From the IMG/VR virus record IMGVR_UViG_3300037044_000223, positions 1-44,914 of that record: a stretch of 44,914 bases of DNA. One strand, 5' to 3'. Shown here one piece after another: positions 4,666-35,603 of the stretch (the first letter of the stretch is position 1; the number at the start of each line of letters is the position of its first letter). Position numbers and translations under genes: made by a program. Below the pieces are notes generated by a model. It worked only from the letters and a program-made list of their open reading frames with translations. It was not told where the DNA came from and ran no database searches. This DNA comes from a virus (taxonomy: Duplodnaviria > Caudoviricetes).

Positions 4666-4684
4666 AAGTTTTGGTCTCCCATCG

Positions 4685-6166
4685 TTACCGCAGTCCGAAT
4701 AATTTCCGGAAATGCAGGCCGTAAAGCGAAAACGATACGGCATCCGCCATCAGGTTGGGCCTGGCAAATAAGGTCCACAGCAGAAGCGACCAGTAATGCC
4801 ACCGTCCCGAGTCCTGCACGCCGAGCGCATAAAACGATTTGAAAAAAGTCACCAGTGCCACGATACCTATCTCCGCTGGTAAGTTCGGGTGCGGGTTGTA
4901 TTCGCGCAAAAGCTTCCGGATTCTCTGGTAGAAAGGCTTGGGCGAATATATGTCATGCAGGATTCTCAAATAACCCTTTACGAGTTCTTTGGGATCCATC
5001 ACAGGGACATAATTCAAAGTCAGGTCCGTGTTGTTTCCTGAAGCTTCGGAAATGATCCTGTTTTCTGATTCATACCGCCTGTAAAGTGCCGTTTTTTTGG
5101 GGGCGTTCAGAAGGCCCACCATGGCCGAAACAATCCCGCTTTGCTGGATGAAATCAATCTGCCGCTGGAAAGTGGTTTCCGTGTCGCTGTCAAAACCGAC
5201 AATAAAACCGGCCGACACCTGCAGGCCGGCGTTTTGCATTTTTTTAACACTCTGAAGCATATCCCGATTGCTGTTCTGTTTCTTGTTGCATTCTTTCAGG
5301 GATTTTTCCTCTGGGGTTTCGATCCCGATAAAAACAGAACTGAAGCCGGTTGCAACCATCAAAGAAAGCATTTCGTCATCGTCGGCAAGATCAACGGAAG
5401 CCTGCGTGTTGAACGTGAAAGGAAAGTTGTGCCGTTCCATCCAATCTTTCATGGCGGGGAGCAGGTTGTATTTGACTTCTTTTCGGCACCCGATGAAATT
5501 GTCATCGACAATGAGTACATGCCCGCGCCAGTTCAGATCGAAAAGCGCCTGCAGCTCGTCAATGACCTGCTGGGTGCTTTTCATCCGGACCTTACGTCCG
5601 AACAGTGCGGTTATCTCGCAGAACTCGCAGGAAAACGGGCAACCGCGGGAAACCTGGATGCTCATGAAAACGTAGTCTTTCAGTGACATCAGATGATAAT
5701 CGGGTATGGGCGTCAGCGTCAGGTCCGCAAATCTGCTGGTTTTATAGATCCTTTCCGGCGTTTGACCCGAGGCCAAGGCATTCAGAAACGGGGGAAGCGT
5801 GATTTCTGCTTCATTCAATATGAAATGATCGACTTCCGGATAATTTTCATATTCCTGGGTGAACAGGGGTCCGCCGGCGACGATCTTGACCTTGTGCTTC
5901 AAACACCGCTTGATTATCTCGCTCACCGATTTTTTTTGAATATACATGGCGCTGATAAACACATAATCGGCCCAAGCCAGGTCCTTTGGCCAGAGCGGAG
6001 AAATGTTCAGATTCACCAGCTTTTTATTCCACTCTTTCGGAAGCATTGCCGACACTGTCAGCATGCCAAGCGGCGGGCATGCCGCCTTTTTATTGACAAA
6101 ACGCAAAATGGATTTAAAGGTCCAGAACGAATCCGGGTAATGCGGGACCACCAATAATATGTTCAT
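4685..6166 (-). CDS. B12-binding domain radical SAM protein with DUF4070-type C-terminus (HpnP-related family)
   Basis: MNILLVVPHYPDSFW, PPLGMLTV, VAGGPLFT, SRGCPFSCEFC, VDDNFIG, GFIVGFDSD; RBS AAGGA and ATGA overlap with SLT stop (493 aa). Confidence 0.92.
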   Translation of the reverse strand: MNILLVVPHYPDSFWTFKSILRFVNKKAACPPLGMLTVSAMLPKEWNKKLVNLNISPLWPKDLAWADYVFISAMYIQKKSVSEIIKRCLKHKVKIVAGGPLFTQEYENYPEVDHFILNEAEITLPPFLNALASGQTPERIYKTSRFADLTLTPIPDYHLMSLKDYVFMSIQVSRGCPFSCEFCEITALFGRKVRMKSTQQVIDELQALFDLNWRGHVLIVDDNFIGCRKEVKYNLLPAMKDWMERHNFPFTFNTQASVDLADDDEMLSLMVATGFSSVFIGIETPEEKSLKECNKKQNSNRDMLQSVKKMQNAGLQVSAGFIVGFDSDTETTFQRQIDFIQQSGIVSAMVGLLNAPKKTALYRRYESENRIISEASGNNTDLTLNYVPVMDPKELVKGYLRILHDIYSPKPFYQRIRKLLREYNPHPNLPAEIGIVALVTFFKSFYALGVQDSGRWHYWSLLLWTLFARPNLMADAVSFSLYGLHFRKLFGLR

Positions 6167-6699
6167 GGTGCTTTCCTTATGTACTTTGACATCAGGGATA
6201 TTATTTTTGTCACATAGCCAAGCGTTTCGCAGCTTTTCCAGCCAGGCACAAATTTTGCGACCGCCGCGATGCTTGCCCACAGGTTCGGTTCAACAGTACA
6301 CAGCTTTTGGGCTTTTAAGATATTTCCGGCCCCGGCATTGTATGACGCGAACATAAGCGCCAACCGGTCCAGTTCCGGCCGGGGGTTTGACCACATCCGG
6401 TATAATTTCCGATCGTAAAAAATACCGGCTTCAATATTTTGCTCAGGATCCTCAACATTTGTAATCCACGGGCAGTGGTACTTTTTGATTTCTGCAAATG
6501 TCGCAGGCATGATCTGCAGGATGCCCTTTGCGCCGCACCATGACACGGCTGCCGGATCTATTCCGGATTCTGCAATTGCCTGCGCCCGAAACCACCGCCA
6601 ATCAAAGTCCGCGCCGAAGTATTTCTCCGAATATTTTGAGAAAAACATGTCATACTTGGTTGTAAACGCCGGAGAATCAACGGTTGTACCAATCTTCAT
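6163..6699 (-). CDS. Lytic transglycosylase (SLT domain), probable endolysin
   Basis: AQAIAES catalytic Glu motif, GAKGILQIMPAT and ASYNAGAG. Confidence 0.92.
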   Translation of the reverse strand: MKIGTTVDSPAFTTKYDMFFSKYSEKYFGADFDWRWFRAQAIAESGIDPAAVSWCGAKGILQIMPATFAEIKKYHCPWITNVEDPEQNIEAGIFYDRKLYRMWSNPRPELDRLALMFASYNAGAGNILKAQKLCTVEPNLWASIAAVAKFVPGWKSCETLGYVTKIISLMSKYIRKAP

Positions 6700-14560: not shown

Positions 14561-14982
14561 GACTCGTGCCCCAGGCCGGTTAATCGCATGATCTTTTTGG
14601 TTAAAATCAAAAATTCAGTTGGAAAGGCCATATTCAGTTTGACGGCAAGCTCGATGTCGCATACCGGGTCCACGCTGCCGGCAATCAGCAATTCCAGGCG
14701 CAGCGCAATATCCATGGGCACGCTTCCATCCAGACCGGTCATGTGCCGCACGGCAGTTGCCGTTCCTTCAGGTTGTTTTCCCGATAAAGCTTCCAATACG
14801 GCATTGATGGTTTTTCGGTTTTTCTCGGCCATTTCCTTGCAGCGGCCCAGTTCATTGCCGTTAAGGCCCTTTACGGTCCATTCTGCAGGTCCATCGAACC
14901 ATTGTTTCAAATCGGGCAGAGGTATGGTTGCGGTCCGATGAACGAGCTTGGCTTTCTTGAACTCTTTTGCTTTAAAAAACAT
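14551..14982 (-). CDS. Tail assembly chaperone (gpG-like)
   Basis: ATG 14982 with RBS GAGGAG; lies between tail tube and TMP; ends in slippery GGGAAAA. Confidence 0.8.
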   Translation of the reverse strand: MFFKAKEFKKAKLVHRTATIPLPDLKQWFDGPAEWTVKGLNGNELGRCKEMAEKNRKTINAVLEALSGKQPEGTATAVRHMTGLDGSVPMDIALRLELLIAGSVDPVCDIELAVKLNMAFPTEFLILTKKIMRLTGLGHESGK

Positions 14983-15006
14983 TGCAGATTCTCTCCTCAA
15001 AAAAAA

Positions 15007-15078
15007 GGTGACGGGTGACGAGTAACGGGTGACGGCCGGTAGACTTGTCACCTGTCACCTGTCACTCGTCACTTATCA
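15007..15078. repeat. Heptamer tandem-repeat palindrome (GTGACGG / CTGTCAC)
   Basis: Direct 7-mers plus inverted copies; contains the TGA of the 15069 gene. Confidence 0.8.
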
Positions 15079-15413
15079 CTCCGATCTCCGTCCAGAGCCA
15101 AGAATTGGCCTTGAATCCAAATCAGCTCCCAATCTCGATAATAAAAGTTTCCTAAATTCGTAATGGTAACCATATCCCCGCGTGCGTAAAAATCATATGT
15201 CGCCAACAAAACCCCATCGGCCGTCAGTTCCGCTTTCCCGCAAGGGCCAGGCCCGAAAGGCCCTTGGGTGAAACGGATTTCATAAACCGTTCCCGCCAGG
15301 TTGACGGTGTAGGTGTGCCCGGCGATATCCGTTTTGATATCCCCGGCCGTGGCGAAACTGGTCAGTACAAACAACAAAGCAATCAACAAACTGGCAAATA
15401 ATGATTTTTTCAT
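15069..15413 (-). CDS. Hypothetical exported protein (moron-like)
   Basis: 114 aa; signal peptide MKKSLFASLLIALLFVLTSFATA; RBS AAGGAG. Confidence 0.75.
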   Translation of the reverse strand: MKKSLFASLLIALLFVLTSFATAGDIKTDIAGHTYTVNLAGTVYEIRFTQGPFGPGPCGKAELTADGVLLATYDFYARGDMVTITNLGNFYYRDWELIWIQGQFLALDGDRSDK

Positions 15414-15432
15414 GGTTGTTCTCCTTAAGAAA

Positions 15433-15502
15433 AGGTTACAAGGTGCAGGGTAGAGGTTTTTTTCTGCCCTCTGTCTTCCGTCTTCTGTTATCTGTCCTCT
15501 GT
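15433..15502. repeat. Degenerate heptamer repeats
   Basis: aggttac-aaggtgc-agggtag and (t/c)ctgtcc/tt series. Confidence 0.6.
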
Positions 15503-16516
15503 TTATCCGGTTATTCTCTTCCCCGGATCATTTGCATTTATGGTGAAATCAGCAACGATGCTGCCACGGGCAGGGTATTGGACATTGATGCCCAGAAAAC
15601 CCTGGGTCAGGATATAATTGTCAGTTTGCAGTCTATCGACAAAGTATTTGATCCAGATCTTTTTCCCTTCCTTGGTCAGTATGGGATCTGAAATTCCGTT
15701 ATCCAAAAAGGCCTTGAACTTGCCGGCTTTTAAAGACGTGCTTACCTCGCCGATGACCCCGCCGTAAAACGGCTGTGATGTCGTTGACATGCTGTTTGCG
15801 GCCGGTTGAAAATCAGCGGCCTTGGGCAGTTCAGAGAATTCCGGTTCGTAATATTGCGCACAAACATTTTTGGTGGTGTTTCCGGTATGGTTCAACATCA
15901 GTGCCGGGCTGAAAACAACACCGGCCAGACCGATCGTGGCGTTTTGCTCCCGGATGAATTCTGTTTTTAGAATTGACGGGTAGTTTGCCATTTCACGGTG
16001 GCGATTCGGGATCGCATAAATTTCGGTGCCGGCAATAGGCGTCGCCGTAGTAGACGAAAGGCGCACCTGGGCCAGTTCGACGCTGCCGACCGGGATAAAA
16101 GGCGGTCCGCCGTTTGCGCCGCGGACTTCACTGAAAGACGCTCCTTCCACGCCGTTGACCACGGCTACAGCCGCAACGCTGTTGATGGTAATGGTGTTGA
16201 TGCGACAAACATCAGCGTCAGCACCGCGCAAGCATGTAATATCCACGCTTGTCGCCAGGGTGGTTACAACGCCTGCAAGGTTCAGGGATCCGGCAGACAA
16301 ATCAACCTTGTCATTGGCGCCGGATATCGCAGGTGTTACAACAAACCCGGTCAGAACGCCGTCTGGTTTGACAACAGGCGCAAAACCGGATTCATCGGAC
16401 CAGATTTCTGCCGCTGAATTGTAGGTTTTGTGGTCACCCGCATCAACCAGGGCAACCATGGAAACAAGGGATTGCCCGTTTTCAAAATATAACAAAGAGT
16501 TTTCGGCGGTTGTCAT
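15503..16516 (-). CDS. Major tail (tube) protein
   Basis: 337 aa; position after tail terminator and before chaperone; RBS GAGG. Confidence 0.7.
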   Translation of the reverse strand: MTTAENSLLYFENGQSLVSMVALVDAGDHKTYNSAAEIWSDESGFAPVVKPDGVLTGFVVTPAISGANDKVDLSAGSLNLAGVVTTLATSVDITCLRGADADVCRINTITINSVAAVAVVNGVEGASFSEVRGANGGPPFIPVGSVELAQVRLSSTTATPIAGTEIYAIPNRHREMANYPSILKTEFIREQNATIGLAGVVFSPALMLNHTGNTTKNVCAQYYEPEFSELPKAADFQPAANSMSTTSQPFYGGVIGEVSTSLKAGKFKAFLDNGISDPILTKEGKKIWIKYFVDRLQTDNYILTQGFLGINVQYPARGSIVADFTINANDPGKRITG

Positions 16517-16531
16517 CGGTATTCCTCTTTA

Positions 16532-16975
16532 TTATGCGTAGGGTGATGTAATGGTTGTGAAATATTTGATCGTGAAATTCGCTGTAACCAAAACTGAATC
16601 ATTCTTGGAATAATCATTCGTGCCGCCGGAAACATAGGCCATGTCTTCAATAAGGGATGAAATTGGCTCCCGCATGAAAGCTTCCCGTAGATCCCCGAGT
16701 ATTTGCTCCGCAAGGACCGAGGGGTTTGTTATCCCGGTTAAAGCGACAGCTTCTACCCGGAGCGGCATTGTGCAAAGGTACTGGCCGCCGCCGATCCGCT
16801 CTGCTGTTTCGGTAAACGGGTAGACGATACATGCCGGCAGCCTTGATGGGTCAACTTTTGTAATCGCACGGTATGTGTTCAGTCCCAGGTCCGTGTTATA
16901 CCCGCTTGCCGTGGTGATGGTCACCGCGCGCACAAGGCATGCTTGAATAATCAGTTCGCGTTTTGTGTCAGACAC
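16532..16975 (-). CDS. Tail terminator/completion protein
   Basis: 147 aa; TKRELII...ITTASGYNTDLG motif; position in tail module. Confidence 0.7.
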   Translation of the reverse strand: MSDTKRELIIQACLVRAVTITTASGYNTDLGLNTYRAITKVDPSRLPACIVYPFTETAERIGGGQYLCTMPLRVEAVALTGITNPSVLAEQILGDLREAFMREPISSLIEDMAYVSGGTNDYSKNDSVLVTANFTIKYFTTITSPYA

Positions 16976-21326: not shown

Positions 21327-22782
21327 TTCCTCCTGTTGCTCCCATCGATTTCCGTGCGTCCGAATCAAACACAAGGCCGGCCGCATCCGCCCGCTCATTA
21401 TCCGCCATGATTTCATCCTCAAGCGCTTCAACGTCCAATCCCCGCTCAGCCACCTCTTGTGTCCGGGAAGAAAACCCGGAGCGGACAAGACCGGTGGACG
21501 CCTTCAAGTCCTTAAGGGGATCAACCCACGGCCAGCCGTCAATCGTCCATTTGATCCTCATGTACGATTTTGGGTCCTTTGCATATCCGGGCAAAAACAT
21601 GGCATTCGATAACGCAACCTGGGAAAGCCAGTACCTGGCGACCGGCCGGCATATCTGATATGCCATGACATTGAAAATGAACTGCTTGCATTGGCGTTGA
21701 AATTCGAGATTGCCGGCCCGGATAGAGGAATAATTGACTTCGGACAGATCCCCGGTGAACTTCTCATAGGTCAATCCTCCCAATCCTCTGGCGACCCTGC
21801 GTTCCTGATGCTTGACAAAACAATCGTAATTCCCGCCGACATCCGCCGGTTCCGAAAACGTGACGGAATGCCCAGGCGCAAGCGTGGTAAACGTGCCAGG
21901 CTGCATATTGTAAACGGGTGTGTCGGTTTCGTCCTTTTCCTTCTTTTCCCCAAACTGCGGCGGCATAAAGTCTTCTTCAGGAGGTTGGGTGACAAACCCT
22001 CCGAACATGGCCGCCGTTTTTTTGCGCGTCAATTCGGCATCGTTAAACTGATTCAGATCGTGCATGGTCAGGATCAGCGAGGTCAGCCAGGGCCGGCCCC
22101 GCTGCTGCCCGGGGCGAAGCGGCTGGAATGCATGAAGTATTTCAGTGGCTGATATCCGGACTCGGTCAAATTGATTCTGGATTGTCATAAACGACTCTCC
22201 GGGGTGTTCCCGGTACATCCAGTACGCCTTGCGTTGACCAGTCTTGTCAAACTCGATCCCCATGCGAATTTCGTTGCCGTTGGGGGCAATTGTGTTATAG
22301 GTTTCATCGAGGTGGTCCGATTCAAGGACCTGGAGTTGCAGCGGCACTGAAAGTCCGCTGCCCGGGCGTTTCGGGCAAAACCGGATAAACACTTCTCCGG
22401 ATTCAATGATTGACCGGGCAATGAGCGCCTGAAGTCCGTAAAAATCAAATAGCCCGTCAGCGTCCGCTTCCTGGGTCCAGTCCGACCAGAGTTGCTGCAA
22501 CGCTTTTTTGAGTTTGGAATTGGAAAGCTGCCACCGGGGGGAGATCCCCATTCCGACGATATTGGACACCAGGCAATCAAGGGCTCCGGATATCTGAGGA
22601 TCATTGCGCGACAGCTCGCGAGACCGGGCGCGAAGGTTCCCAAGCGAGGAAAAAAGCGTACTGTTCGGTCCGGCTGTTGATAATCCCCACCTGTACATTC
22701 TCCGGCCGGTTCCGGAACCCTCGTAGTCACTATAGGCCCGGATTTTTCGTCCTTGACTGTCCAGTATCTTCAGAAAGGTCAT
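21295..22782 (-). CDS. Lambda-family portal protein (gpB-like)
   Basis: LRARSREL.RND, LQVLESDHL, GDLS.VNYSSIRAG and WVDPLKD motifs. Confidence 0.95.
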   Translation of the reverse strand: MTFLKILDSQGRKIRAYSDYEGSGTGRRMYRWGLSTAGPNSTLFSSLGNLRARSRELSRNDPQISGALDCLVSNIVGMGISPRWQLSNSKLKKALQQLWSDWTQEADADGLFDFYGLQALIARSIIESGEVFIRFCPKRPGSGLSVPLQLQVLESDHLDETYNTIAPNGNEIRMGIEFDKTGQRKAYWMYREHPGESFMTIQNQFDRVRISATEILHAFQPLRPGQQRGRPWLTSLILTMHDLNQFNDAELTRKKTAAMFGGFVTQPPEEDFMPPQFGEKKEKDETDTPVYNMQPGTFTTLAPGHSVTFSEPADVGGNYDCFVKHQERRVARGLGGLTYEKFTGDLSEVNYSSIRAGNLEFQRQCKQFIFNVMAYQICRPVARYWLSQVALSNAMFLPGYAKDPKSYMRIKWTIDGWPWVDPLKDLKASTGLVRSGFSSRTQEVAERGLDVEALEDEIMADNERADAAGLVFDSDARKSMGATGGNASGNTDQTV

Positions 22783-23015
22783 TAGACCCCCTTGCTCGTT
22801 GAGATTCGGAAATACCGCGACCTGTTATTCAGTGCGTTTATCTTCGCGATGAGGCTGGACTTGTAATCCTGTAATTCTCCAAGCTTGGCTTGACCGTATT
22901 CAGCCGAACGCTCGCCGTTCGAAATGCGGATAACGCGCTCGCCGGCCATCAACTTCGCGATGGCTTCATCTACAGCCACCAGTAATGTGCTTAATTCAGT
23001 TAGTGTTTGTGCCAT
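22782..23015 (-). CDS. Head-to-tail joining protein W (gpW-like)
   Basis: 77 aa before portal; AIAKLMAGERV..IS.GERS.EY. Confidence 0.85.
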   Translation of the reverse strand: MAQTLTELSTLLVAVDEAIAKLMAGERVIRISNGERSAEYGQAKLGELQDYKSSLIAKINALNNRSRYFRISTSKGV

Positions 23016-23068: not shown

Positions 23069-23092
23069 ATTCGCAGTATTCGCAGTATTCGC
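23069..23092. promoter_or_regulatory. 9-bp direct repeats (ATTCGCAGT x2.7) upstream of gpW; putative regulator site
   Basis: attcgcagt-attcgcagt-attcgc about 55 bp upstream of the gpW ATG. Confidence 0.5.
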
Positions 23093-24216
23093 TTAAAATG
23101 CAGGGGAAAAATGGGGAAAGGGTTCCGGCAAGGGGGGCGTGCAGAAAGCTCCGCATAAATCACAATGGGTGGCATGGGAACGCTTCTCACAAGTGAAATG
23201 GGGGAGTGAAAAAGCGTGTTTAGAATGGTGAATAAGGGGTATCTGGGGGAGTGATGCAAGTGGAGCACCTGTATGAATTTGAATGAGTGGAAAGGACCCA
23301 TTTTTGATGTGAAAAGAGACCGAAATGACGAAAAAAGCAGAAAAAAAATTCATGAAAATGATTGAAAAATGAGTATGAAAGTAGATGGTGAAAGGTGATG
23401 ATGTTGACGAGGGCCGGAAATGAAGTATTGAATCTCGAAGTGAATAATGTGACAGAAAAGAACAGCGCTTGCCGGGAAGGAAGCAGGCGTCACGCCCCTT
23501 GCAAAAAAGCCGCAAGGGCCGCGCCGCTTGGTCATGTGTGTGCATACCCAATATCTGCGGGCGGATAAAAATCAGTTTGATGGTGACAGCCTGGACATGA
23601 GGGGCCTTGAATGTTCTTTGGTTGTGTCGCGCCTGGGAGGATGCAGGCTGGACGTGAGGAGCAGGCGTCACGCCCCTTGCAAAAAAGCCGCAAGGGTCGT
23701 GCCGCTTGTTCGTGGGTTCGCGTACCCGATATCTGCGGGCGGATAAAAATCAGTTTGATGGTGACAGCCTGGACATGAGGGGCCTTGAATGTTCTTTGGT
23801 TGGTGCGCGACGGGGGGGCTGGCTGAACGTGAGGAGCCGGCGTCACGCCCCTTGCAAAACAGCAAGGGTCGCGCCGCTGGGCCTTTGGTTGCCACTCCGT
23901 CATTTGCTCCAGGTGTCGCCTCCGGCTCCATCCTGAAAGGATAAAAGCATTTGATATTTGATGGTGCCGCTCGACGTGCAGTGCGGGCGTCACGCCCTTT
24001 GCAAAAAGGCAAAGGGCGCGCCGCTACCTCTATGGTAGTTGCGCCCCGAAACAGCAAAAGCAACAGCAACTGCAACAGCACCCGTGTGGTGGTGGTTTGT
24101 GTTGTTTCGTTTCGCCACTAGCGCCCCCGCGCACGTGCCGTGGTATTAGTAGTCTTAGTGGTACTGGTGCATTTGGTATTGGTGGTGGTATTGGCACTAT
24201 GTATTTTGATGACATT

Positions 24217-24311
24217 GGGCGTTCCGGCTTCGCCGTCGGGTGTCTTCCGGCTCCGCTTCGCTCCGGTCCCGCCAAAAAGCCGGCGGGACTTCCCTTCAGC
24301 CCCCCTAACGC
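24217..24311 (-). ncRNA. Flavo-1-like structured element, copy 1
   Basis: Minus strand GCGTTAGGG...GAAG...CCCGAC-hairpin-GGAACGCCC matches my recollection of the Flavo-1 motif architecture; not verified by search. Confidence 0.5.
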
Positions 24312-27300
24312 TCGCGGGCCGGTGCGGTTATCGGATTCGTGCCCGCGCTCCACATGGGGTGGTTTTAAGGGCGTGACAACGTTTCGCGTGGTGCTGTTTC
24401 GGCCGGTCACTCCCCAAAAGCGGTCGTGACCGGCCTCAATTCCATTTTCCTGAGAGCGCCACGGAAAAGCCCAGACGCCACGTGAGGTGCCGTTCAGGCG
24501 GACACTCCGCTGCGCTACGTGACCGCCTTCAAGTTCACGATCGGGGAACGCAACGGAAAAGCACGCATGCCATGTGTGGTGCTGGCCGGCGCTCCCCAAA
24601 AAGCCGGGGAGCGCCTAGGCGACGACCTTTTCAACCTGGACGAATAAACAAAAGCCGCAAGCGCCACGGCCTACGCGCTCCCTGCAAAAAAACGCAGGGA
24701 GCGCTCCGGCGGTGCAGTGCAGCCGGTCACTTCGCAAGGGCCTACGTGACCGGCTGCAAGGCCACGATCGGGGTATGCCACGGAGAAAAACAAAAGCCGC
24801 ATGCCATGTTTCGTGCAGACCGGCGCTCCCTGCAAGGGCCAGGGAGCGCCTAGTAGACGACCTTTTCAATCTGGACGGAAAAGCAATAAGGAGGCGCCGG
24901 ACACTCCGCTGCGCTACGTGACCGGCTTCGACATCATTTGATAAAAAGCCGCCATGCCACGTTCGGTGCTGACCGCCGCTCCCTGCAAAGGCCAGGGAGC
25001 GGCTAGGCGACGACCTTTTTAGCCGGGACGAAAAAAAGCCGCTGGGTCACTGACGGTAACGACCGGCGTGTCCGGACAAAAAGCTGCCCGGCCACACCTC
25101 GACCACTTTTGGCGAAGCACATTCATTCAAAGCGCCAGGAGTCGCACGGCTATGCAAAATTGAAATGGTTTTGCTGGGCCGCGCTCCGTCATTATTTGAT
25201 AAAAGCAACGGAACAAGGAAGTCGGGCGGCCACATCACAGTTGTATTGGCTGTTCAGCGGCCGCCCTCCATCTTTATCTGATAATGCCCACCCACCACCC
25301 ACAGCGGATGGCGCGGCAGCCGGGGCGGATGCTCCGCGCTGAAAATGCTGCCTCCGCACCCGCCCCGACAGCCGCTTGACTTATTTGATAAAAGCGGGAG
25401 CTGTCCGGACGTTGGGTGCATGTGGTCCGCTCCCTAAAAGCAAGGGAGCGGACCACAGACGACCTATTGAGGGAACGCAGCAAAAAAAGCAGGCTTGCTT
25501 CGCAAGATCAAGAAGGACGTGGAGTGCACGCCTACGCGCTCCCCAAAAGCAGGGAGCGCTCCGGAGACGACCTATTGAGGCGCTCAAACGAAAAGAAAAA
25601 CAGCAGACTACCCAGCCTGGTGCTGGCCGGCGCTCCCCAAAAAACCGAGGAGCGCCTAGTAGACGACCTTTTCAATCTGGGCGAGAAAACAAAAGCCACA
25701 AGCGCCACGGCCTACGCGCTCCCTGCAAAAAGCGCAGGGAGCGCTCCGGCGGTGCAGTGCAGCCGATCACTCAGCAAAAGCCTACGTGACCGGCTGCAAG
25801 GCCACGATCGGGGTATGCCACGGAAAAACAAATGTCGCATGCCATGTTTCGTGCAAACCGGCGCTCCCTGCAAGGGCCAGGGAGCGCCTAGTAGACGACC
25901 TTTTCAACCTGGGCGAGAAAACAAAAGCCGCAAGCACCACGGCCTACGCGCTCCCTGCAAAAAGCGCAGGGAGCGCTCCGGCTGTGCAGTGCAGCCGGTC
26001 ACTTCGCAAGAGCCTACGTGACCGGCTGCAAGTCCACTATCGGGGAATGCCACGGAAAAACAAAAGTCGCATGCCACGTTCAGCGTTGACCGCCGCTCCC
26101 TGCAAGGGCCAGGGAGCGGCTAGGCGGCGACCTTTTCAGCCTGGTCGAAAAAACAAAAGCACGCTGAGTCACTGACGGTGCCAACCGGCGCGGCCGGACA
26201 AAAATCTGCCCGGCCACACCTCGACATCTTTCGGCGAAACGCATTCATTCAAAGCGCCAGGAGTCGCACGGTCTAGGCAAAATTGGAATGGTTTTGCTGA
26301 GGCCGCGCTCCGTCATTATTTGATAATGCCCACCCACCACCCACAACGGATGACGCGGCAGCCGATGCGGACGCTCCGCGGCTGAAAAATGCCGCCTCCG
26401 CACCCGCCCCGACAGCCGCTGAATCAATTTGATAAAAGCGGGAGCATTCCGGACATGTGGCGCAGTGCAACCCGGTCACTCCGCAAGAGCCTACGTGACC
26501 GGGTTGCAAGTCCATGTGGGGAACAACACGGGTGCGGGTCAGTCCGTCCGGTGTTGGCCGCCGCTCCCTGTAAAAGCCAGGGAGCGGCTAGGCGACGTTC
26601 AGTGCAATGCGAAAAAAAAAAGCTGAATCCCGGGTGTCAGAGCGCAGGGCCGGTCACTCCCAACTGGTCGTGACCGGCCCTGAGTTCGCGTAAGGTTAAT
26701 AAAACAGCCGCACTTTGCCCGTTCCGTACAGCCGTACCGCACCTCAAACTGCCGGGGAGCGGTACGAAGACGCATTATCGGGGAACACCGAGTTTAAAAC
26801 ACGTACCAGTGCCACGGGCCTCCGCGCACCCCAAACTGCCGGGGAGCGCTCCGGCTGTGCAGTTCGGCCCTTCACAAAAAGCCGGGGAGCGACACGTAGG
26901 CGAACTATCGGAAAAACCTGGACGAAAAACAGCGGTGCAGACCGACGTTCGGTTCTGATAGCCGCTCCCCAAAGGGCCGGGGAGGGCTAGGCGACGACCT
27001 GTGTGACGCATTCATTCAAAACGCGGAAGGAAAGGGGTTAGGATGGCCACTGTTTGGACGTCCAGTGCTGCCGTAACGCACCCCAAAAAGCCGGGGAGCG
27101 TTACGGAGGCGACCTATTGGGGAGCGCTTCGACTGTGCAGAGTTCGGCCGGTCACTTCACAAGTGCCTTCGTGACCGGCCTCAAAACCACGTGGGGAGAA
27201 AAGGGGTCATCACACCCTGGACGTGAGGAGCCGGCGTACCGCACCCCAAACTGCCGGGGAGCGGTACGCAATCGACCTTTCGTCGCATGGAAAAAACGTG

Positions 27301-28194
27301 AAACGCCGTAGTCCGTGCTGACCGGCGCTCCCTGCAAAAGCCAGGGAGCGCCTATCTACGACCAGTGAGATGCCAACTAGAAAAACCGCAGGACAACGGG
27401 CCTGAGCGCTCCCCAAAAAAACCGGGGAGCGCTCAGGCTGTGCAGAAACCAACGACCGGTGTAGCGCCACGGGGAAAAGAGCGGTTTTGACGTGAGGTGC
27501 TCGCGGCACGGCCCTTGCAAAAAGGCAACGGCCGCGCCGCCGGGAAGTGATGCGCAAGGCCACGATCTGCAAGCGGATAAAAAGTCAGTCTGATCCCCCG
27601 CCTGTTAATATGGGTAGCATGTTCTTTTGTGAGCTGCTGCCCGGCCGCATAAGGCCCTGGGGCAAGTCGCTCCGTTCGGCACGGCTGATAAGAGCTCTTA
27701 TCAGCCGTGGCTTTTTGTCATGCAGGCTGCAAAAACAGCAGCCTGCCCGCCAAAAACCTGCCCTCACTCCGCTAGACATAACACGCATTATGTCTCCTTG
27801 CCCCAGGGACTTATGCGTCCTCTTGCCCACTCCGCACAATCTTTCTACCAGAACGACCGGCCGCCCCCAGGGGCTATCAGCGGAATTCTACCTTTAAAAG
27901 GATAAAAGCATTGATATTTGATGGTGGCGCCTGAACATGAGCGCACGCGGTGCGCCCCTTGCAAAAAACCGCAAAAGGCGCGCCGCTCGACGCGCTTTGT
28001 TTCGAGCCACGGAAAAGCAAATGCAAATGCCTGCTGCTGGTCGTTCAGGTTCATGTTGGCGTTTTCAGCCACTAGTGCCCCCGCTAGGGTACTGAGATTC
28101 TGGATATAAATATGGATCAGGTGGTTGATGTGGTATTGGTGGTGGGGTTATATGTTACGCAGCTATGTATTATGGTCATACAGCAAAATGAGAC

Positions 28195-28306
28195 GGGCGT
28201 TTCGGCAGGGCAAAAAGCGCACCCTGCCGTCGGGTGTCTTCCGGCTCCGCTTCGCTCCGGTCCCGCCAAAACAGCCGGCGGGACTTTCCTCCAGCCCCCC
28301 TAACGC
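28195..28306 (-). ncRNA. Flavo-1-like structured element, copy 2
   Basis: Near-identical to 24217-24311 with a longer variable stem (cggcaggg...ccctgccg). Confidence 0.5.
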
Positions 28307-31300
28307 TCGCGGGCAGGTGCCGCTATCGGATTCGTGCCCGCGCTCCACGTGACCGGGACGTACGGTGTGCTGCTTCCGCCTCCCGTTCCGGCAGGCCTTC
28401 ACGGGAGACGGAAGCAGTGGCACTATCCGGAAGGTCCCTGACATAACTGCCTCCCGCCGGGTAAAAAAACCCCCGGCGGTAAGACCTGGCATCCGGTGAG
28501 TTGCAGAAGTCTCCCGTTCAGCAAGCTTTCACAGGAGACTTCTGCAATGGCACTATTGGGGAAACTCGACGTAAACTGTCTCCCGCCGGGAGAAAAGCAC
28601 CCGACGGTAAGACCGGGACGTGCGGTGCAGTTCGGCCCGTCACTCCGCAAGGGCCTGCGTGACGGGCCTCAAGTCCAATATCCTGGAACGCCTCGAAAAA
28701 GCGTGCATGCCACGTGTGGTGCTGACCGGCGCTCCCCAAAAAGCCAGGGAGCGCCTAGTAGACGACCTTTTCAACCTGGACGAATAAACAAAAGTCGCAA
28801 GCGCCACGGCCTACGCGCTCCCTGCAAAAAAACGCAGGGAGCGCTCCGGCGGTGCAGTGCAGCCGGTCACTCCGCAAGGGCCTACGTGACCGGCTGCAAG
28901 GCCACGATCGGAGTATGCCACGGAAAAACAAAAGCCGCATGCCATGTTTCGTGCAGACCGGCGCTCCCTGCAAGGGCCGGGGAGCGGCTAGGCGACGACC
29001 TGTGCGACGCATTCATTCAAAACGCAGAAGGAAAGGGGTTAGGATGGCCACTGTTTGGACGTCCAATGCTGCCGTAACGCACCCCAAAAAGCCGGGGAGC
29101 GTTACGGATGCGACCTATCGAGGTACGCCAAGAAGAACAGCCGCCAGGTCCACGGCCTACGTGCACCCCAAAAAGCCGGGGAGCGCTCCGGCTGTGCAGT
29201 TCAGCCCGTCACAAAAAACCGTGACGGACCTCAAGTCCACATGGGGGAAAGAGCGAAAAAAACAGCCGAACCTTGGGCGTGGGGAACTGGTAGTCCGCTC
29301 CCTGCAAAAGCCAGGGAGCGGACTACAGACGACCTATTGAGGCGCTCAAACGAAAAGAAAAACAGCAGACTCCCCAGCCAGGAGCAGACCGGCGCTCCCC
29401 AAAAAGCCGGGGAGCGCCTAGGCGACGACCTTTTTGGCGCCACGAAAAAGAAATGGAGGCCGGTCACTCCCAAAAAACGGTCGTGACCGGCCAGCCATAA
29501 TCAGCGGATAAAAGCATTTTTTCGATATTACCCACCCACCACCCCGTCTTATTTTCGGCACGTGCAGAGCCATGCTCCGGGAACCTCGCGAAAAAACTCG
29601 GTACCCGTCTCAGGCGACGGAAGGACCGGGATATAGGTGCTTGAATATGAGGAGTGCGGCGCCGATCACCTGTCGGTCATCGGCGCCGGAGAACGGAAGG
29701 TGGAGAGCGACGAAACTACTGTTTTCCGGCACAATACGAGGCTATCTGCACGCTGGGGGATGCGCCACGGATAGGGGAATTGGCACGTTTTACTAACAAA
29801 GGATTGTTTGAAAAGCGACGGGTTGAGATTCGTGGTGCGCGACGTGGGGTTGTGCGTGTCATGCCCGTTGCAGAAAAGCTCGCAACGGTCACGCCACGGG
29901 GGATGATCGTGCAGTTGGAAAGATCGCATGTGGACGAAAAAACAAGAAAAGGATAACAGCATTATTCGATAATGCCCGCCCACCACCCCAACTGTAAAAA
30001 AAACCTCCGGAAACCCATGAAAAAACCTCCAAAAACCACTACAAAGCGCCTAACGGCGAAGGCCAAAACATAGTGAGAGGTTTTTTGCAGTTGCAAACGA
30101 TTCCTTTGCAACTGCAATGACAAAAACGGAAAAGTGTGAACGTTGGGAGTGTGCTCCGGAAACCTCACAAAAGCCTCAGTATCCGTCGCATGGGTACGAA
30201 AAAAACCGGAGAAAATCAAGACTTGATGAGCTTGCTCCGGGAACCTCGCCGAAAAGCTCGGTACCCGTCGCACGAGACGAAAGGGAAGAACGACGAGAGT
30301 AACAGCAACATCAAGGGCAAAAGCAACTGCAAAAGCAAAAGCAAAAGCAAAAGCGGGATGGCTTTGGTCGTGAGGAGCGTGCTCCGGAAACCTCACAAAA
30401 GCCTCGGTATCCGTCGCATGGGACGAAAAAGCCGGAACGGGGAGCCCGGACGTGGGGAGTGCGGCACCGATCACCTGTCGGTCATCGGTGCCGGTGGACG
30501 GGAGGAAAAGCGCGACAAACAACTTTCATCCGGGGACGGCAAAAGGTTGTCTGGACGTGGAGCGGGACGCGAACAGCGGGGCTGTCTGCACGTTTTACTA
30601 ACAAAGGATTGAATAAAAAGCGACGGGTAGAGGGCCGGGCGCTGGGGAGACGTGGGAAGCTGGTGTCACCCGCATGCAAAAAGAGCATGGGGCGCGCCAC
30701 TGGGGAAGATCGGGATTTAACAGCACGCCTGCGGCGGGCAAGGAAAGGGGTTAGGATGTCTGCTCCTTGCAAGTCCGTTGTGGGGCGGCCGGTCACTTTC
30801 CGTGACTCCCTGCACCAAATCTAGCGGCCGCCGGGTTTCCCATCTGGAAATTTATGCAATTCCCCAACACTTGCTAAAAGGATAAAAAGTCAAATTGAGG
30901 CTGGGGTGTTGTATCGTTCATCCTGTGTTCCAACCTGCCGCGCTATCGCTTGGCTCTTTTTCGGTTTCAAAAAAATAACTGCTCCCTTTTTGTCAAAAGA
31001 TCGGAAGGGGGTTTAGCCGTTATTTTTTCAAAACCTCAAAACTCTAAGCGCTCAAAACTCTTATTGAATCTTTTTCCCCCATGTTTCGTGATGCATGATT
31101 TTTCGGTTCAAAAATACATCCTTAGTCAAAAAGGGTTTTCGGCTGGTCGTCGTTGGGTGTGCTACTGCCGGGTTGCCGGTGTCGGTGGCCAGGTCGCCGG
31201 TCCCAGATCCAGGTGGCATCCGGCGCCCGGCTTCCAGGCTGCCCGGGCTGGGTGTCTGTTCGGGTCCAGGCGCCCGTGCGCCAGGGGTCCCGGTACATAT

Positions 31301-31467: not shown

Positions 31468-31483
31468 TGGCATGCAGCTTGCA
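31468..31483 (+). promoter_or_regulatory. Sigma-54 (-24/-12) promoter
   Basis: TGGCATGCAGCTTGCA fits TGGCACG-N4-TTGCW with correct spacing; AT-rich upstream region; ORFs with RBS follow. Confidence 0.75.
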
Positions 31484-31544: not shown

Positions 31545-31739
31545 ATGTCGCTCAATTTTTGTATGCCGTCCGTTCATTCGCCGCGCGTTCCCTGCATCAA
31601 GCTTCCGCCGTTCGATATACGGTCCGAAGGCACTTCTTTCAAACAGCTTGTTTTCCTGGGCTATGAGTTCCACCAAACCCCACCACCTACCGAGTCTTCC
31701 GTTCAGTGCTCCGAGTTGCCTGTTCCTTCTCAGTCGTAG
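31545..31739 (+). CDS. Small hypothetical protein (64 aa)
   Basis: ATG after AAGGGGGGG, downstream of the sigma-54 site; no recognisable motif. Confidence 0.4.
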   Translation: MSLNFCMPSVHSPRVPCIKLPPFDIRSEGTSFKQLVFLGYEFHQTPPPTESSVQCSELPVPSQS

Positions 31740-31821: not shown

Positions 31822-32211
31822 ATGCAGCTATCTTTTTTACGTGATTCATTGCCGGCCGGATATGTCCGTTTTTATCCCAATCTTCCCACGGAAATCTTTC
31901 TTGCCCTGGGCGGCGTTCAGGCGCTTGAAAAAGTTGGGGCTCACAATATCCTCAGCAGCCACAATGCCCTGCAAATCGATGTTTGCGCAGTCAATGGCGT
32001 TACCATGATTCATGTCACCCAAAACGTTCACAAGGCATATGATATTTATTTTTATAACAGCAAGGGGGCGTGCGTGTCGTATGCTTATCATGTCTATCAC
32101 CACGAGCTTGCAGGCGTGTTCCGGTCCGGCACCGGGCTTGTTTCTTTCAAGAAAAAGTACATCGGGCTCGATCCGGCCGTTTGCTGCGAAGAAGAGCAGG
32201 CGGTTGCATAG
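31822..32211 (+). CDS. Conserved phage/plasmid hypothetical protein (129 aa)
   Basis: RBS AGGAGGT; I...LGG......GA.N...YDI.F...VY..EL..VF...TGL pattern resembles a widespread small phage protein family. Confidence 0.75.
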   Translation: MQLSFLRDSLPAGYVRFYPNLPTEIFLALGGVQALEKVGAHNILSSHNALQIDVCAVNGVTMIHVTQNVHKAYDIYFYNSKGACVSYAYHVYHHELAGVFRSGTGLVSFKKKYIGLDPAVCCEEEQAVA

Positions 32212-32710: not shown

Positions 32711-32763
32711 AGTGACAAGTGACAAGTGGCCCGTTCCGTCACCCGTCACCCGTCACTTGTCAC
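32711..32763. repeat. Heptamer repeat palindrome (AGTGACA / CCGTCAC)
   Basis: Direct and inverted 7-mers; contains the TGA of the HTH gene. Confidence 0.75.
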
Positions 32764-32939
32764 CCCTTTAGGTTCTTTTTGATGTACTCATCAATGGAGT
32801 CTTTTAAAACACGCAAGCTACGGGGGCCGAGCATGATGGCTTTGAGTTTTCCAGTTTTAATCATATCGTAGATATGGCGCTCGGTGCAGCACAATTCTTG
32901 CGCTGCTTTGCGAATATAGACGAATTTTTCAGCGGTCAT
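32760..32939 (-). CDS. Excisionase-like helix-turn-helix protein
   Basis: AAQELCCTERHIYDMIKTGKLKA..LGPRSLRV; RBS GAGGTG before ATG 32939. Confidence 0.85.
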   Translation of the reverse strand: MTAEKFVYIRKAAQELCCTERHIYDMIKTGKLKAIMLGPRSLRVLKDSIDEYIKKNLKG

Positions 32940-32961: not shown

Positions 32962-34806
32962 TCACTCCTTTTGCCGTTCCAGGTAAGAACATATCACGGA
33001 TATTTTTTTTCTCGGCATTGTCGGCAGCCCAGGTGTAGTTGACTTTGACCTGCCGAGCCACAGGAGACCGGCGCGGATAGCGGCTGCATAGGCGTAAATT
33101 TCAGCATCAAGCGCATCGTTTCGATCCCTTGTTTTCACCCATTCCAGATATGGGAAACCGCCTTTGATATGGGTTTCCATTTTTTCTGCGGTAAGCTGCA
33201 TAAAATATTCGTCTGTTACGCATTCATACCAGTGATAACAGCATGGTCCCGGAACTTTATTGTTTTTCAACCGGCCGTACAGTGTGGATTTCGCGGTATC
33301 GGTTCCGACCGGCCACAATTTGACGCCCCTGGGGATCTGCTTGCCCCTCCAGTTCAAATCTTGTTCGGAGGGTTTTCCTAATACAGGTTTATTGCGTGCG
33401 CGCTCGCCTTTTACGGCAAAAACACGGCTGTCTTTTTTTCGGCAATAGCTGTAAACTTGCTGTGTTTTGTAACCGGAATCAATAGCGACACCGGCCACAG
33501 AGATGACGGCATCATCACACATGAAGTTGTAAGCAATCAAGTCGTCAAGTTGTGATTCCCAGTCGCCGTAGATTTCCCCGTACCAAATGAGCCAGGATTC
33601 TTCACCGACTCCCCATCCGCGGATTACAACAACAATCCGGTTTTCCTGAACGTCAACACCAAACGTAATGAATATGACACCTGGGGGCGGTTTCATCGGC
33701 TCATAGGGTTCACACCTTAACCGGAGGTTTTCCCATTCCGGTTGTTCCCCGGCAACTTCATAAGGTTCGCCGAGTCGGGTATTTACCCAAACCTTCATGG
33801 ACATGGGATCTTTTTTTGCGTCGTTGTATTCCTGAGCGATCTGGCGCCAGGAAACAAAGCCGAGGGGAGACAAAAGGCCGCTGATGTGGTATCCGCGTTT
33901 TGACCGGTTTGGTTGTAGAGGAATCCATTTTCCCTTTTTCAACATCTTGTTTTTGTAATGCTCGTTGATTTTTTCACGACAATTCATGCAAGTGTACCAG
34001 ACATCTGTTACTTCGCCGTTTTCCTCTGTATAATGCAGCCCATGTTCTTCATTGTTCGTGGAGAAGATAAGTATTTGCCGGGTTTCACAGAAAGGGCAGG
34101 GTACGTGGTAATATCGCTGGTCGGATTTCTGGAATTCTTTTTCGATCAGAGATCCGCCTTTTATCGTCGGCGTGCTGATCTTCAGGATTTTTTTCCGGCT
34201 GGAGTAAGTATCGGTCCGGCGCTCGGCCAGGCTTACGGGGCTTCCTTCCCCGCCGATATCCGGTTCAAAGCCGTCGATGTCATCCAGGATCAAGTAACGG
34301 ATAGAAACGTTTCGGAATGCCGATCCGGAATTGCTTCCGGCCAAGTAGAGTGCGCCGCCGACAAAGTTTTTTGCAAGTACGGTGTTTCCGCCGGTGCGGC
34401 TTTTTGACGGGTGGACCTTTGCAGCGATCGAGGGGATGCTTTCGATCATGGGGGCGATACGGTTCCGGCTGTGGCGTTCCGCCAGCTCGACCGTGGGAAG
34501 CATGTACAAAATCGGGCCGGGTGCACAATCAATGATGTAGCCGATAAAGTTATTCGCCACTTCAGACCCGCCAATCTGCGTGGCTTTCATGACGGCGATA
34601 TCGGTTATTTCGGATTCTGAGACCGACAGTGCTTGCATAATTTCCCGCAGATATGGCGTACGCCTTGTGCGGTAGTTACCGGCTTCACGAGAGGCGACGG
34701 AATTCAGGACCCTTTTTTCATCGGCCCATTCGTCAACAGTGGTCAGTGGATCCAGTTCAAGGCCGTCGCAAGCGGCTTGAATAAAAAAAGTGCGGCCGTC
34801 AATCAT
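32962..34806 (-). CDS. terL: Terminase large subunit (GpA family)
   Basis: TPYLREIM, KATQIGGSE, ISTPT, SDQRYYHVPCP.C, GVDVQ and RNDALD motifs. Confidence 0.96.
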   Translation of the reverse strand: MIDGRTFFIQAACDGLELDPLTTVDEWADEKRVLNSVASREAGNYRTRRTPYLREIMQALSVSESEITDIAVMKATQIGGSEVANNFIGYIIDCAPGPILYMLPTVELAERHSRNRIAPMIESIPSIAAKVHPSKSRTGGNTVLAKNFVGGALYLAGSNSGSAFRNVSIRYLILDDIDGFEPDIGGEGSPVSLAERRTDTYSSRKKILKISTPTIKGGSLIEKEFQKSDQRYYHVPCPFCETRQILIFSTNNEEHGLHYTEENGEVTDVWYTCMNCREKINEHYKNKMLKKGKWIPLQPNRSKRGYHISGLLSPLGFVSWRQIAQEYNDAKKDPMSMKVWVNTRLGEPYEVAGEQPEWENLRLRCEPYEPMKPPPGVIFITFGVDVQENRIVVVIRGWGVGEESWLIWYGEIYGDWESQLDDLIAYNFMCDDAVISVAGVAIDSGYKTQQVYSYCRKKDSRVFAVKGERARNKPVLGKPSEQDLNWRGKQIPRGVKLWPVGTDTAKSTLYGRLKNNKVPGPCCYHWYECVTDEYFMQLTAEKMETHIKGGFPYLEWVKTRDRNDALDAEIYAYAAAIRAGLLWLGRSKSTTPGLPTMPRKKISVICSYLERQKE

Positions 34807-34957
34807 GATGAACCCATAAAAAGACAGAATTGGAATGGCAAAGCAAAAAGTTCAAGATCAAGGCGAGCAAGTCCTGAGGAGTGAGGCGTACGACCAGTAC
34901 GCCGCAACGACGAAGGATGCAGCTCAACGCAGATATTGGGCTTTTTGAGAAGCCATC
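34807..34957. mobile_element. MITE-like element, copy 2 (151 bp)
   Basis: Terminal inverted repeats GATGAACCCATAAAAAG / CTTTTTGAGAAGCCATC; flanks AATCAT/AGTCAT. Confidence 0.85.
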
Positions 34958-35603
34958 AGTCATGGTGATTACCCCGGATATGCGTCAGCGCATTTCTGAT
35001 TTCGTTTTCCAGGATGATCCGGACATTCGCCTCTTTTTTTTCGGCTGCAAGCTGGGCGCTTATCCTATCGATGATATTCAGTAAGCTGTCTCGGGTTTTC
35101 CGGTACATTTCAAAGGCGCCTTTTTGGACGTCTTCATCCCGCAACAATTTCCCGGACCGCTCTTCAAAGTCCAATTTTTTCATTTCGGCATTGTACTGTT
35201 CTTTTAACGTCCGAGCCGCGCTGAAGGACATTCCCGCCAACTCAATGGTTTTTGCTGTTTCTGTTCTCTGTCCTCCGTCATCCGTCATCTGCCCTCTGTC
35301 TTCAGTCTTCTGTCCTCTGTCATCTGCCCTCTGGTTTAACCTGGATATCTTGTTTTTAAATCCGCGGGCCTCGGGGTCCGAGTATTTTTTGACATTTTCG
35401 ACAGCGGTATCGATGTCAATCAGGTAATACCGCTGGTTTATTTTCGTAAACGTGTCGCCGAAAGCGCCTTTTTTGTGGAGTTGGGAGACACGTCCCTTAG
35501 TGACGCCGAGCCGTTTTGCAAGATCGGTAAGACTCCCGTATCCCTCCGGCAAAGAAACCAGCTTGCAATCTTTTCGAACCTTGGGGATTTTCTTTTTTTT
35601 CAT
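34956..35603 (-). CDS. terS: Terminase small subunit (Nu1-like)
   Basis: N-terminal HTH (LAKRLGVTKGRVSQL); ARTLKEQY.A...KLDFEERSGKL; RDSLLNI.DRISAQLAA; upstream of terL. Confidence 0.85.
   Translation of the reverse strand: MKKKKIPKVRKDCKLVSLPEGYGSLTDLAKRLGVTKGRVSQLHKKGAFGDTFTKINQRYYLIDIDTAVENVKKYSDPEARGFKNKISRLNQRADDRGQKTEDRGQMTDDGGQRTETAKTIELAGMSFSAARTLKEQYNAEMKKLDFEERSGKLLRDEDVQKGAFEMYRKTRDSLLNIIDRISAQLAAEKKEANVRIILENEIRNALTHIRGNHHD
35258..35333. repeat. Heptamer repeats inside the terS coding sequence
   Basis: (t/c)ctgtc(c/a/t)-type 7-mers encoding DDRGQKTEDRGQMTDDGGQRTE. Confidence 0.75.

Follow-up and report, generated by a model that had tools for sequence, protein, structure and literature searches.

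Several described systems place oriented or palindromic elements at the end of a chromosome or in arrays within prophages. When a lambda-type phage packages its DNA, the terminase keeps hold of the left end while RecBCD has access to the right one; some lambdoid phages, as in the clusters of LLS and MD8, gather oriented Chi sites at this right cos end on the 3'-ending strand (PMC12315714). The telomeres of Streptomyces carry packed palindromes on the 3'-ending strand, and the hairpins of their 3' overhangs, with GNA loops and sheared G-A pairs, have been proposed to be possibly nuclease-resistant (PMC5449611). The iss of phage T5 is a non-coding tract rich in repeats and palindromes near the leading chromosome end (10.1101/866236), the variable prophage arrays of UG27 reverse transcriptases (RTs) consist of structurally conserved but sequence-diverse units that are gained and lost (10.64898/2026.09.22.753630), REP, REPIN and BIME elements are imperfect palindromes in mosaic clusters (PMC3116915), and the Frpo/ssi leading regions of plasmids carry one-strand hairpins by which a promoter duplex is re-formed ahead of small early genes (PMC12672017). 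Here we describe a multi-kilobase array of hairpins that resembles each of these in part, located in the head-gene region of the virus record IMGVR_UViG_3300037044_000223, all 44,914 bases of which make up what we call the window.

The window belongs to a lambda-like temperate phage. Its head cluster lies on the minus strand (terS, gpA-type terL, gpW, portal, protease, decoration and major head genes), and RecT-like, exonuclease, replication-initiator, IHF-like and repressor genes are also encoded. Because related arrays sit in metagenome-assembled genomes (MAGs) titled delta proteobacterium and Desulfobacteraceae, the phage hosts are likely Desulfobacterota. We compared 14 arrays (the window and 13 related loci, several of them truncated by contig ends); the phage records searched are 28-85% complete and both host MAGs are incomplete. 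The array and the genes that frame it are as follows.

22782..23015, minus strand: gpW head-tail adaptor (Pfam gpW, E 1.6e-7; PHROG 75), the first gene on the predicted cosB (first-packaged) side
23461..30900, minus strand as the inferred folding strand: hairpin array, at least 47 hairpins of types A, B, C and D plus further unit families
32760..32939, minus strand: excisionase-like helix-turn-helix (HTH) gene after terL (Pfam HTH_17)
32962-34806, minus strand: gpA-type terL
34956-35603, minus strand: terS, only ~20 bp from the next open reading frame (ORF)

The array is real and apparently undescribed, each named family that could be tested failing at a defining feature. Chi clusters consist of an unstructured octamer spread through the genes of phages reported without a recombination module (PMC12315714), whereas the array is made of hairpins in gene-free DNA, its oriented motifs are not enriched outside it, and its phage has RecT-like and exonuclease genes; the top array octamers are rare elsewhere in the window. 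Streptomyces telomeres span a few hundred nt in a fixed order and depend on a terminal protein and the Tap primase (PMC5449611), whereas the arrays are 3.5-8 kb long, shuffled, and beside a predicted cos end; neither terminal protein nor Tap appeared among general ORF scans, which were not a dedicated search for them. T5 iss is ~1.7 kb long, conserved in order, furnished with 8 DnaA boxes and placed in a terminal repeat (10.1101/866236), unlike the array, which has no DnaA boxes and a shuffled order and belongs to a cos phage. UG27 arrays require an adjacent RT and two accessory proteins and are built from ~150-nt units of one family (10.64898/2026.09.22.753630), whereas the array has many unit families in far more copies and no RT, none being found in four of four phage records and the host matches lying at least 34 kb away or on other contigs. 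REPINs occur throughout extragenic DNA in association with a RAYT (PMC3116915), whereas the units of the array are confined to one phage site, although an 18-mer is held in common with a dispersed Desulfovibrio repeat; as to a cognate RAYT, three phage records gave no Y1 match and the Y1 genes of the hosts are on contigs without units. Frpo rebuilds sigma70 -35/-10 boxes on DNA that enters single-stranded (PMC12672017), whereas the array matches sigma54, has loops too short for a start site, and enters as duplex. Within the literature covered, which took in few subscription papers, no description of such an array in any phage was found.

A non-coding array between terL and gpW

The first-pass annotation of the window had singled out 23461..30830 as a structurally conserved, undescribed array, a proposal that the hairpin counts, the comparison of 14 arrays and the covariation of the stems all back. 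The gap of ~9.7 kb that it noted between the terL/HTH genes and gpW is confirmed by the gene coordinates, and its hand counts (about 25 GC(T/A)CCC..GGGAGC and about 12 GTCAC..GTGAC stems) agree closely with pattern searches. The former, our A hairpins, occur 23 times within 23461-30830 (25 times as relaxed GCWCCY..RGGAGC) and nowhere else in the window, and the latter, our B hairpins, 11 times within this interval and once outside it, while chance means from 200 Markov-1 simulations were 0.06 and 0.18 respectively. Hairpins of the CCCTTGC type number three by a strict and six by a relaxed pattern. The spacing of the at least 47 hairpins found with four patterns is mostly 45-116 nt, and the units are regular at ~90 nt. 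Self-comparison likewise supports a mosaic of recurring stem-loops: same-strand self-matches cover 83% of 23461-30830, 220 high-scoring pairs being on the plus strand versus 5 on the minus strand, and all array units share one orientation. The core of the proposed interval holds, but the array itself extends to ~30900, and a predicted cos site occupies the left edge of the gap.

The earlier statement that about 7.4 kb of the gap contains no credible gene stands; the gap as a whole also holds the plus-strand genes orf64 and orf129. None of the 11 long ORFs in or overlapping the array matched PHROGs, and alignments of the window to relatives at 88% identity or more showed 64 indels, 50 of them of 1 nt and five multiples of 3; hidden protein genes in the array are ruled out by these frame-blind indels together with the lack of PHROGs matches. 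An assembly artefact can be set aside on three grounds. Another IMG/VR record (L022), whose sample may be the same one or a neighbour, shows 99.97% identity across 9,745 bp; a 343-kb MAG contig (L071) runs unbroken through terL, a complete variant array and gpW/portal; and contigs from three DNA sequencing runs covered 30 of 30 bins, with no single contig spanning the whole stretch.

Nor do the two host MAGs support ordinary host repeats scattered through the genome, another possibility that had been named as fatal to the proposal. In these MAGs the true A hairpins all fall at loci linked to a predicted cos site (17 of 17 and 9 of 9). An 18-mer scan of GTDB genomes returned 29 stretches, three of which are arrays (L071, L073 and L087) and the rest chance or a Desulfovibrio repeat. 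No tRNA or tmRNA was found in the searched sequence, no blastn match to the array among 50,697 records of cultured phages, and only a single 52-bp match among 72,556 plasmid records. One array palindrome (window 30083-30123) matches a palindrome located where an integrase island of a host MAG ends (G002:C388, L142:1978-2018); this 41-bp match had been considered as a CRISPR spacer and was rejected, the palindrome lying in the integrase island.

Unit order, array length and cargo in related phages

Every array with a visible left edge begins with C-type units, and the order of later units varies. Because the ends of alignments between arrays fall in shared motifs, the reshuffling of units fits a homology-driven process. 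Array length is about 3.4-7.9 kb across the clade, and the distance from the HTH gene to gpW is not constant either (about 7-17 kb). In a TerL tree (19 rows, midpoint root) the phages bearing arrays or orf129 are separated from four array-less phages by a branch 0.7 long with 100/100 support. The most divergent array-bearing phage, L059, with 73% TerL identity, retains the first units, the cos spacing and several motifs.

Terminase and gpW do usually neighbour each other, as had been assumed in calling the gap unusual; in this group, however, the gap is a variable cargo site even without the array. Four relatives with a fully visible gap have no array and gaps of 0.1-5 kb with Rha, ArdC and small genes, the array-less L021 keeping ArdC between terL and gpW. 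Cargo of several other kinds was seen in the gap. Two records (L002:4766-8923 and L004:4005-7971) carry gene cassettes with attC-like hairpins between the predicted cos site and gpW (HEPN/Toprim, DUF4357 and others), and no integron integrase was found in these two records. A second replication module often lies between the HTH gene and orf129 (L042:13510-16902, L057:10468-13221, L134:1453-3543 and L063:1616-4969), in the form of DnaB with an initiator, a prim-pol, or a primase with a D5 helicase, and is absent from the window. Two toxin-antitoxin-like pairs (Gp49-like, RelE) are inserted between array and orf64 in L042 (10724-12148), and an insertion with terminal inverted repeats, identified by eye, lies inside the array of L087 (1330-1880).

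Hairpin families and covariation

The main hairpin families and one invertible segment are placed as follows.

24591..29416, no strand assigned: A-type hairpins (25), with an invariant GC(T/A)CC / GGGAGC core and variable, covarying outer stems
24406..30806, no strand assigned: B-type hairpins (GTCAC..GTGAC), whose internal loops read GA/GA or GNA/GNA when the minus strand is taken
23482..24024, minus strand: the first four C-type hairpins, whose right arms resemble sigma54 -24/-12 sites on that strand
27647..27816, no strand assigned: invertible segment between 20-bp inverted repeats, with one dif-like site inside
27774-27795, within the invertible segment: dif-like site ACATAA-N6-TTATGT

The first-pass annotation had described stems that are conserved while loops and linkers drift, and the comparison of 14 arrays supports structural conservation. 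In the outer stems of the A hairpins, 107 arm pairs include 18 different 6-nt arms with perfect pairing, and the B hairpins have 10 among 29. Watson-Crick pairing at A positions 1-6 exceeded all 500 arm shuffles, which ignore relatedness. The loops between arms are 4-12 nt long. Further C-type copies lie at about 27504, 27945, 29858 and 30655, and the GGATAA motifs of the array are strand-biased. The palindrome ACATAA-N6-TTATGT, which we take to be dif-like, occurs once in 11 of the 14 arrays; the segment of ~170 bp around it is flipped in L050 relative to L071 and L073 (174 bp, 97%), and also in contigs of two DNA runs.

The predicted folding strand

The hairpin description given earlier had overlooked that the G-A internal loops are confined to the minus strand. 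Among 238 distinct symmetric 2x2 and 3x3 internal loops, GA/GA or GNA/GNA loops number 24 on the minus and 0 on the plus strand, against a shuffle expectation of 0.5-1 per class (4 shuffles); patterns defined post hoc find 22 such GA loops in six families in the window. The ratio of GC(GNA)GC on the minus to the plus strand is 10:1 in the window's array and 6:6 outside it. DNA folding energies lean to the minus strand in nine of 10 arrays and in five of five units tried, whole-array energies did not discriminate RNA from DNA, and UUCG and GNRA tetraloops showed no excess over shuffles. GNA triloops are an established DNA motif, and the hairpin loops are T-rich on the minus strand. Together, the GNA triloops and T-rich loops point to DNA as the folding form (PMC5449611). 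The predicted right end of the chromosome would carry the 3' end of the minus strand.

A predicted cos site at the array edge

A lambda-like cos element, missed in the earlier picture of the gap, is predicted at 23258-23299 between array and gpW.

23258..23269, minus strand: predicted cosN, 12-nt cohesive end GGTGCTCCACTT, with 14 distinct contexts in related loci
23293..23299, minus strand: cosQ-like heptamer GGGTCCT, the only intergenic one among four copies in the window

The lambda record ends in GGGTCCT followed by 23 nt, the final four being TACG; on the minus strand of the window the cosQ-like GGGTCCT (23299-23293) is followed by 23 nt and then by the 12-mer. This 12-mer is identical to the lambda end (as given in PMC12315714) at 6 of 12 positions, and cosQ is described as a conserved 7-mer required for termination (PMC4669245). 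The 14 contexts were collected by a pattern for the 12-mer; within them the spacing from heptamer to 12-mer is lambda's 23 nt in 12, 22 nt in one and diverged in one, the predicted nick is preceded by TACG in 11 and by TACA in three including the window, and GC or GT follows the predicted cohesive end, where lambda has CG on both sides. The cos-like element adjoins the array edge in 14 of 14 distinct contexts. A gpA-type terminase, gpW, a lambda-type portal and an IHF-like protein are all present, as expected for a lambda-type cos, and assembled contigs run across the predicted site.

Only ~20 bp lie upstream of terS, which leaves no room for a cos site there, and we infer that cos has been relocated behind terL in this clade, such that packaging would proceed from gpW and reach the array last. 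With the predicted cos between array and gpW, the array would line the last-packaged, free right end. In array-less L017 a GGGTCCT precedes terS by ~120 nt. The gap of that phage also has a lambda-like look-alike, which was dropped, as it falls within coding sequence also present in L059. Even without any function for the array, a relocated cos would alter the virion map of the clade and mark a cargo hotspot, with cassettes, defence islands and signalling genes on the first-packaged side.

At three loci in the host MAGs (G001:C22, L108; G002:C243, L107; G002:C325, L087) the cos-like element is followed by at least 10-18 kb of non-phage DNA, including a DUF499/methylase/SNF2 island, PAS-kinase genes and metabolic genes, and the two MAGs hold four loci with cos and array but a single matching portal. 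Such loci could represent satellite-like or cargo-packaging elements, or else prophages that are broken because the MAGs holding them are incomplete.

A proposed role for the array

Of the three options offered by the first-pass annotation, a structural array of single-stranded DNA (ssDNA) is the best fit: the GA/GA, GNA/GNA and GNA-triloop motifs are found on a single strand, and this strand ends at the predicted cos. Our leading reading, which we hold at a little less than an even chance, is that the array consists of vertically kept, recombination-shuffled hairpin units that could act as a folded ssDNA shield or decoy at the exposed right end, comparable in design to the telomere overhangs of Streptomyces and in position to right-end Chi clusters. 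The TerL tree and the ArdC gene that array-less L021 has in the gap also count in its favour. The right end of lambda enters the cell first, and by analogy the array end would do so here. Terminase would cut at 23258-23269 and package towards gpW, leaving the array as the last-packaged end, open to host helicase-nucleases as in lambda and LLS (PMC12315714). Unwinding or 5'-to-3' resection from the right end would release the minus strand, with its 3' end at cos; the freed strand would form dozens of imperfect hairpins, to which sheared G-A motifs would lend stability, and the folded tail would slow single-strand nucleases and bind host factors. In the C-type units a sigma54 -24/-12 duplex would be displayed that ends in a fork, and the many oriented repeats would supply homology for the recombination that reshuffles units.

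A more ambitious version, which we regard as possible though doubtful, is that the clade, having moved cos behind terL, built a telomere-like ssDNA-aptamer library of 3.5-8 kb as an adaptable counter-defence. Its nuclease-resistant hairpins might titrate host proteins once the end is unwound, including sigma54-RNA polymerase through promoter-mimicking forks, and would be reshuffled by recombination. Nearly all phage counter-defence known so far relies on proteins, together with a few RNAs; if the proposal were true, a multi-kilobase, gene-free device made of folded DNA and placed at the packaging end would form a new class of component.

A number of points weigh against a folded ssDNA end. Tandem G-A loops stabilise RNA too, and the strand test cannot separate DNA from RNA; the lambda cohesive ends ligate quickly after entry, and the exposed state may be brief. 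The loops counted belong to a few related unit families and cannot be treated as independent, and over all arrays GNA triloops stand at 32:5 minus to plus but with ~29 expected per strand, so that their asymmetry alone is the signal. Two of five units folded no better than shuffles, RNA folding energies showed no strand preference, and the G-T versus A-C test was weak (wobble pairs 17 vs 11). Selection on any single unit is weak, as array length varies two-fold and an insertion element sits within the L087 array. No cos candidate was found in array-less L019, L020 and L021, and before the predicted nick the window has CA rather than the conserved CG of lambda, with GC after it (PMC4669245). 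Finally, the Chi-rich phages are reported without a recombination module of their own (PMC12315714), while the window phage has RecT-like and exonuclease genes.

Alternative explanations

Two alternatives survive about equally well, and we consider each unlikely. The first is that the array is transcribed as a modular non-coding RNA (ncRNA) or processed small RNAs, which might serve as a protein sponge and include a 6S-like sigma54 mimic among the units. Covarying stems, fixed internal loops and regular units of ~90 nt would all suit an RNA, a weak sigma70-like site on the minus strand (31463-31436) and a -10-like hexamer on the plus strand beyond cos are both directed into the array, and the UG27 systems provide a precedent for prophage arrays of variable structured ncRNAs (10.64898/2026.09.22.753630). 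However, no Rfam 15 family reached its gathering score (four matches were at chance level), four of four phage records showed no RT, the folding strand is U-rich in loops and linkers and holds 24 of 29 terminator-like sites, and GNA triloops, as noted, are a DNA motif. One RNA run (X23, share 0.06) covers portal, array and terL equally thinly, a weak argument since contigs cannot show level or strand. Of the RNA options in the first-pass annotation, a single long ncRNA is unlikely given that unit order is shuffled between phages, and a small-RNA array is conceivable.

The second is that the hairpins are near-neutral or selfish REP/MITE-like elements, amplified by recombination at a free end and kept as a length stuffer from cos to cos. 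Breakpoints in shared motifs are what homology-driven shuffling predicts, array length ranges two-fold, and an insertion is tolerated inside the L087 array. Some units may have REP-like origins: the left arm of the C type has its 18-mer in common with a dispersed palindrome of Desulfovibrio cuneatus (7 loci). A 52-bp piece of P type matches an intergenic stretch of a planctomycete plasmid, and both hosts encode Y1 transposases. (The dispersed, REP-like D. cuneatus palindrome itself was recorded in L068, L070, L076, L077, L084, L088, L094 and L091.) Ordinary host REP/BIME repeats are nevertheless unsupported in the two host MAGs, where the true A hairpins keep to cos-linked loci without exception. 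Also speaking against a stuffer are the absence of Y1 transposases from three of three phage records, the single orientation of all units, the retention of first units, cos spacing and motifs in L059, and the inconstant distance from the HTH gene to gpW.

Improbable, in our view, is a role of the duplex or of cruciforms as entry or transcription signals, either in injection control as for T5 iss or with the C arms as true sigma54 promoters reading across cos into gpW-portal. The array would lie at a chromosome end, as do the non-coding repeats and palindromes of iss near the leading end of T5 (10.1101/866236), two to four C units adjoin the predicted cos with sigma54-like right arms directed to gpW, and GGATAA is strand-biased. 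Yet DnaA boxes, by the box consensus, are 0 with no mismatch and 4 versus 5.6 expected with one, which is no excess; loops of 4-12 nt are ill-suited to a dimeric duplex binder, a cruciform would not require G-A motifs on one strand, and L002 and L004 have 5-6 kb of antisense cargo between cos and gpW. Gene-less integron cassettes, that is non-canonical attC sites shuffled by a tyrosine recombinase in trans, would agree with the attC-like gene cassettes that two relatives carry across cos, whose bottom strand coincides with the strand on which the array is predicted to fold, and with partial IntI matches in the hosts, but are most improbable given that strict AAC/GTT core pairs are 0 in 13 of 14 arrays (a weak test by regular expression, as they are also 0 in the L002 cassettes), that no integron integrase rose above the cut-off in five genomes or records (the records incomplete), and that breakpoints fall in several different motifs and not in one site.

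The orf64-orf129 operon and sigma54-like sites

Beyond the array the gap contains a short plus-strand operon, for which the predicted folding strand of the array is the template strand.

31468..31483, plus strand: sigma54-type promoter of the orf64-orf129 operon, TGGCAY-N5-TTGCA with variable N5, kept in 13 related contexts
31545..31739, plus strand: orf64, a small gene with homologues of 59-95% identity in related loci and longer versions in relatives
31822..32211, plus strand: orf129, an uncharacterised, widespread family of ~100 aa (PHROG 9437)

The orf129 family has 1,145 representatives at E<=1e-3 (broad-family HMM E 1e-17) and falls in unnamed clusters of the Atlas, under 0.9. Its structural model (pLDDT 79) found no Foldseek match in PDB at E<=0.001 and no clear fold match, the best Z being 6.5 and that of the T4 MotA C-terminal domain 5.9. 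The gene lies next to the array wherever that side is visible, but as the family also occurs without an array (L020) it is not demonstrated to be the array's partner. Phage L059 has four tandem orf129-family paralogues behind a sigma54-type promoter (14953-16965).

Scored against the sigma54 consensus, five sites in the window reach 11 of 13 sigma54 matches: three in C hairpins, one before orf64 and one elsewhere. Over the 14 arrays there are 21 such sites versus 3 in shuffles, one of the 21 being the gene promoter in L059. C units and the orf64 promoter both have GG and GC at -24/-12 spacing with consensus flanks, and sigma54 is encoded in each of the two host MAGs. Were a C unit to fold, its -12 element would abut the loop, in a manner like the fork junction that sigma54 is reported to bind (PMC5095919).

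Other features of the window

Just upstream of gpW lies a short set of tandem repeats.

23070..23096, plus strand: 9-bp tandem repeats, from sequence

These repeats remain with gpW where cargo is inserted next to cos, and are possibly a late promoter or operator. A GC-rich tract at 31100-31300, ahead of an AT-rich promoter region, is kept in altered form in L071 and L059, and short tandem GTCAC/GTGAC repeats follow the HTH gene (32715-32770). The tail region of the window (3364-6280) carries two B12-binding radical SAM genes (DUF4070), and similar genes are present in relatives.

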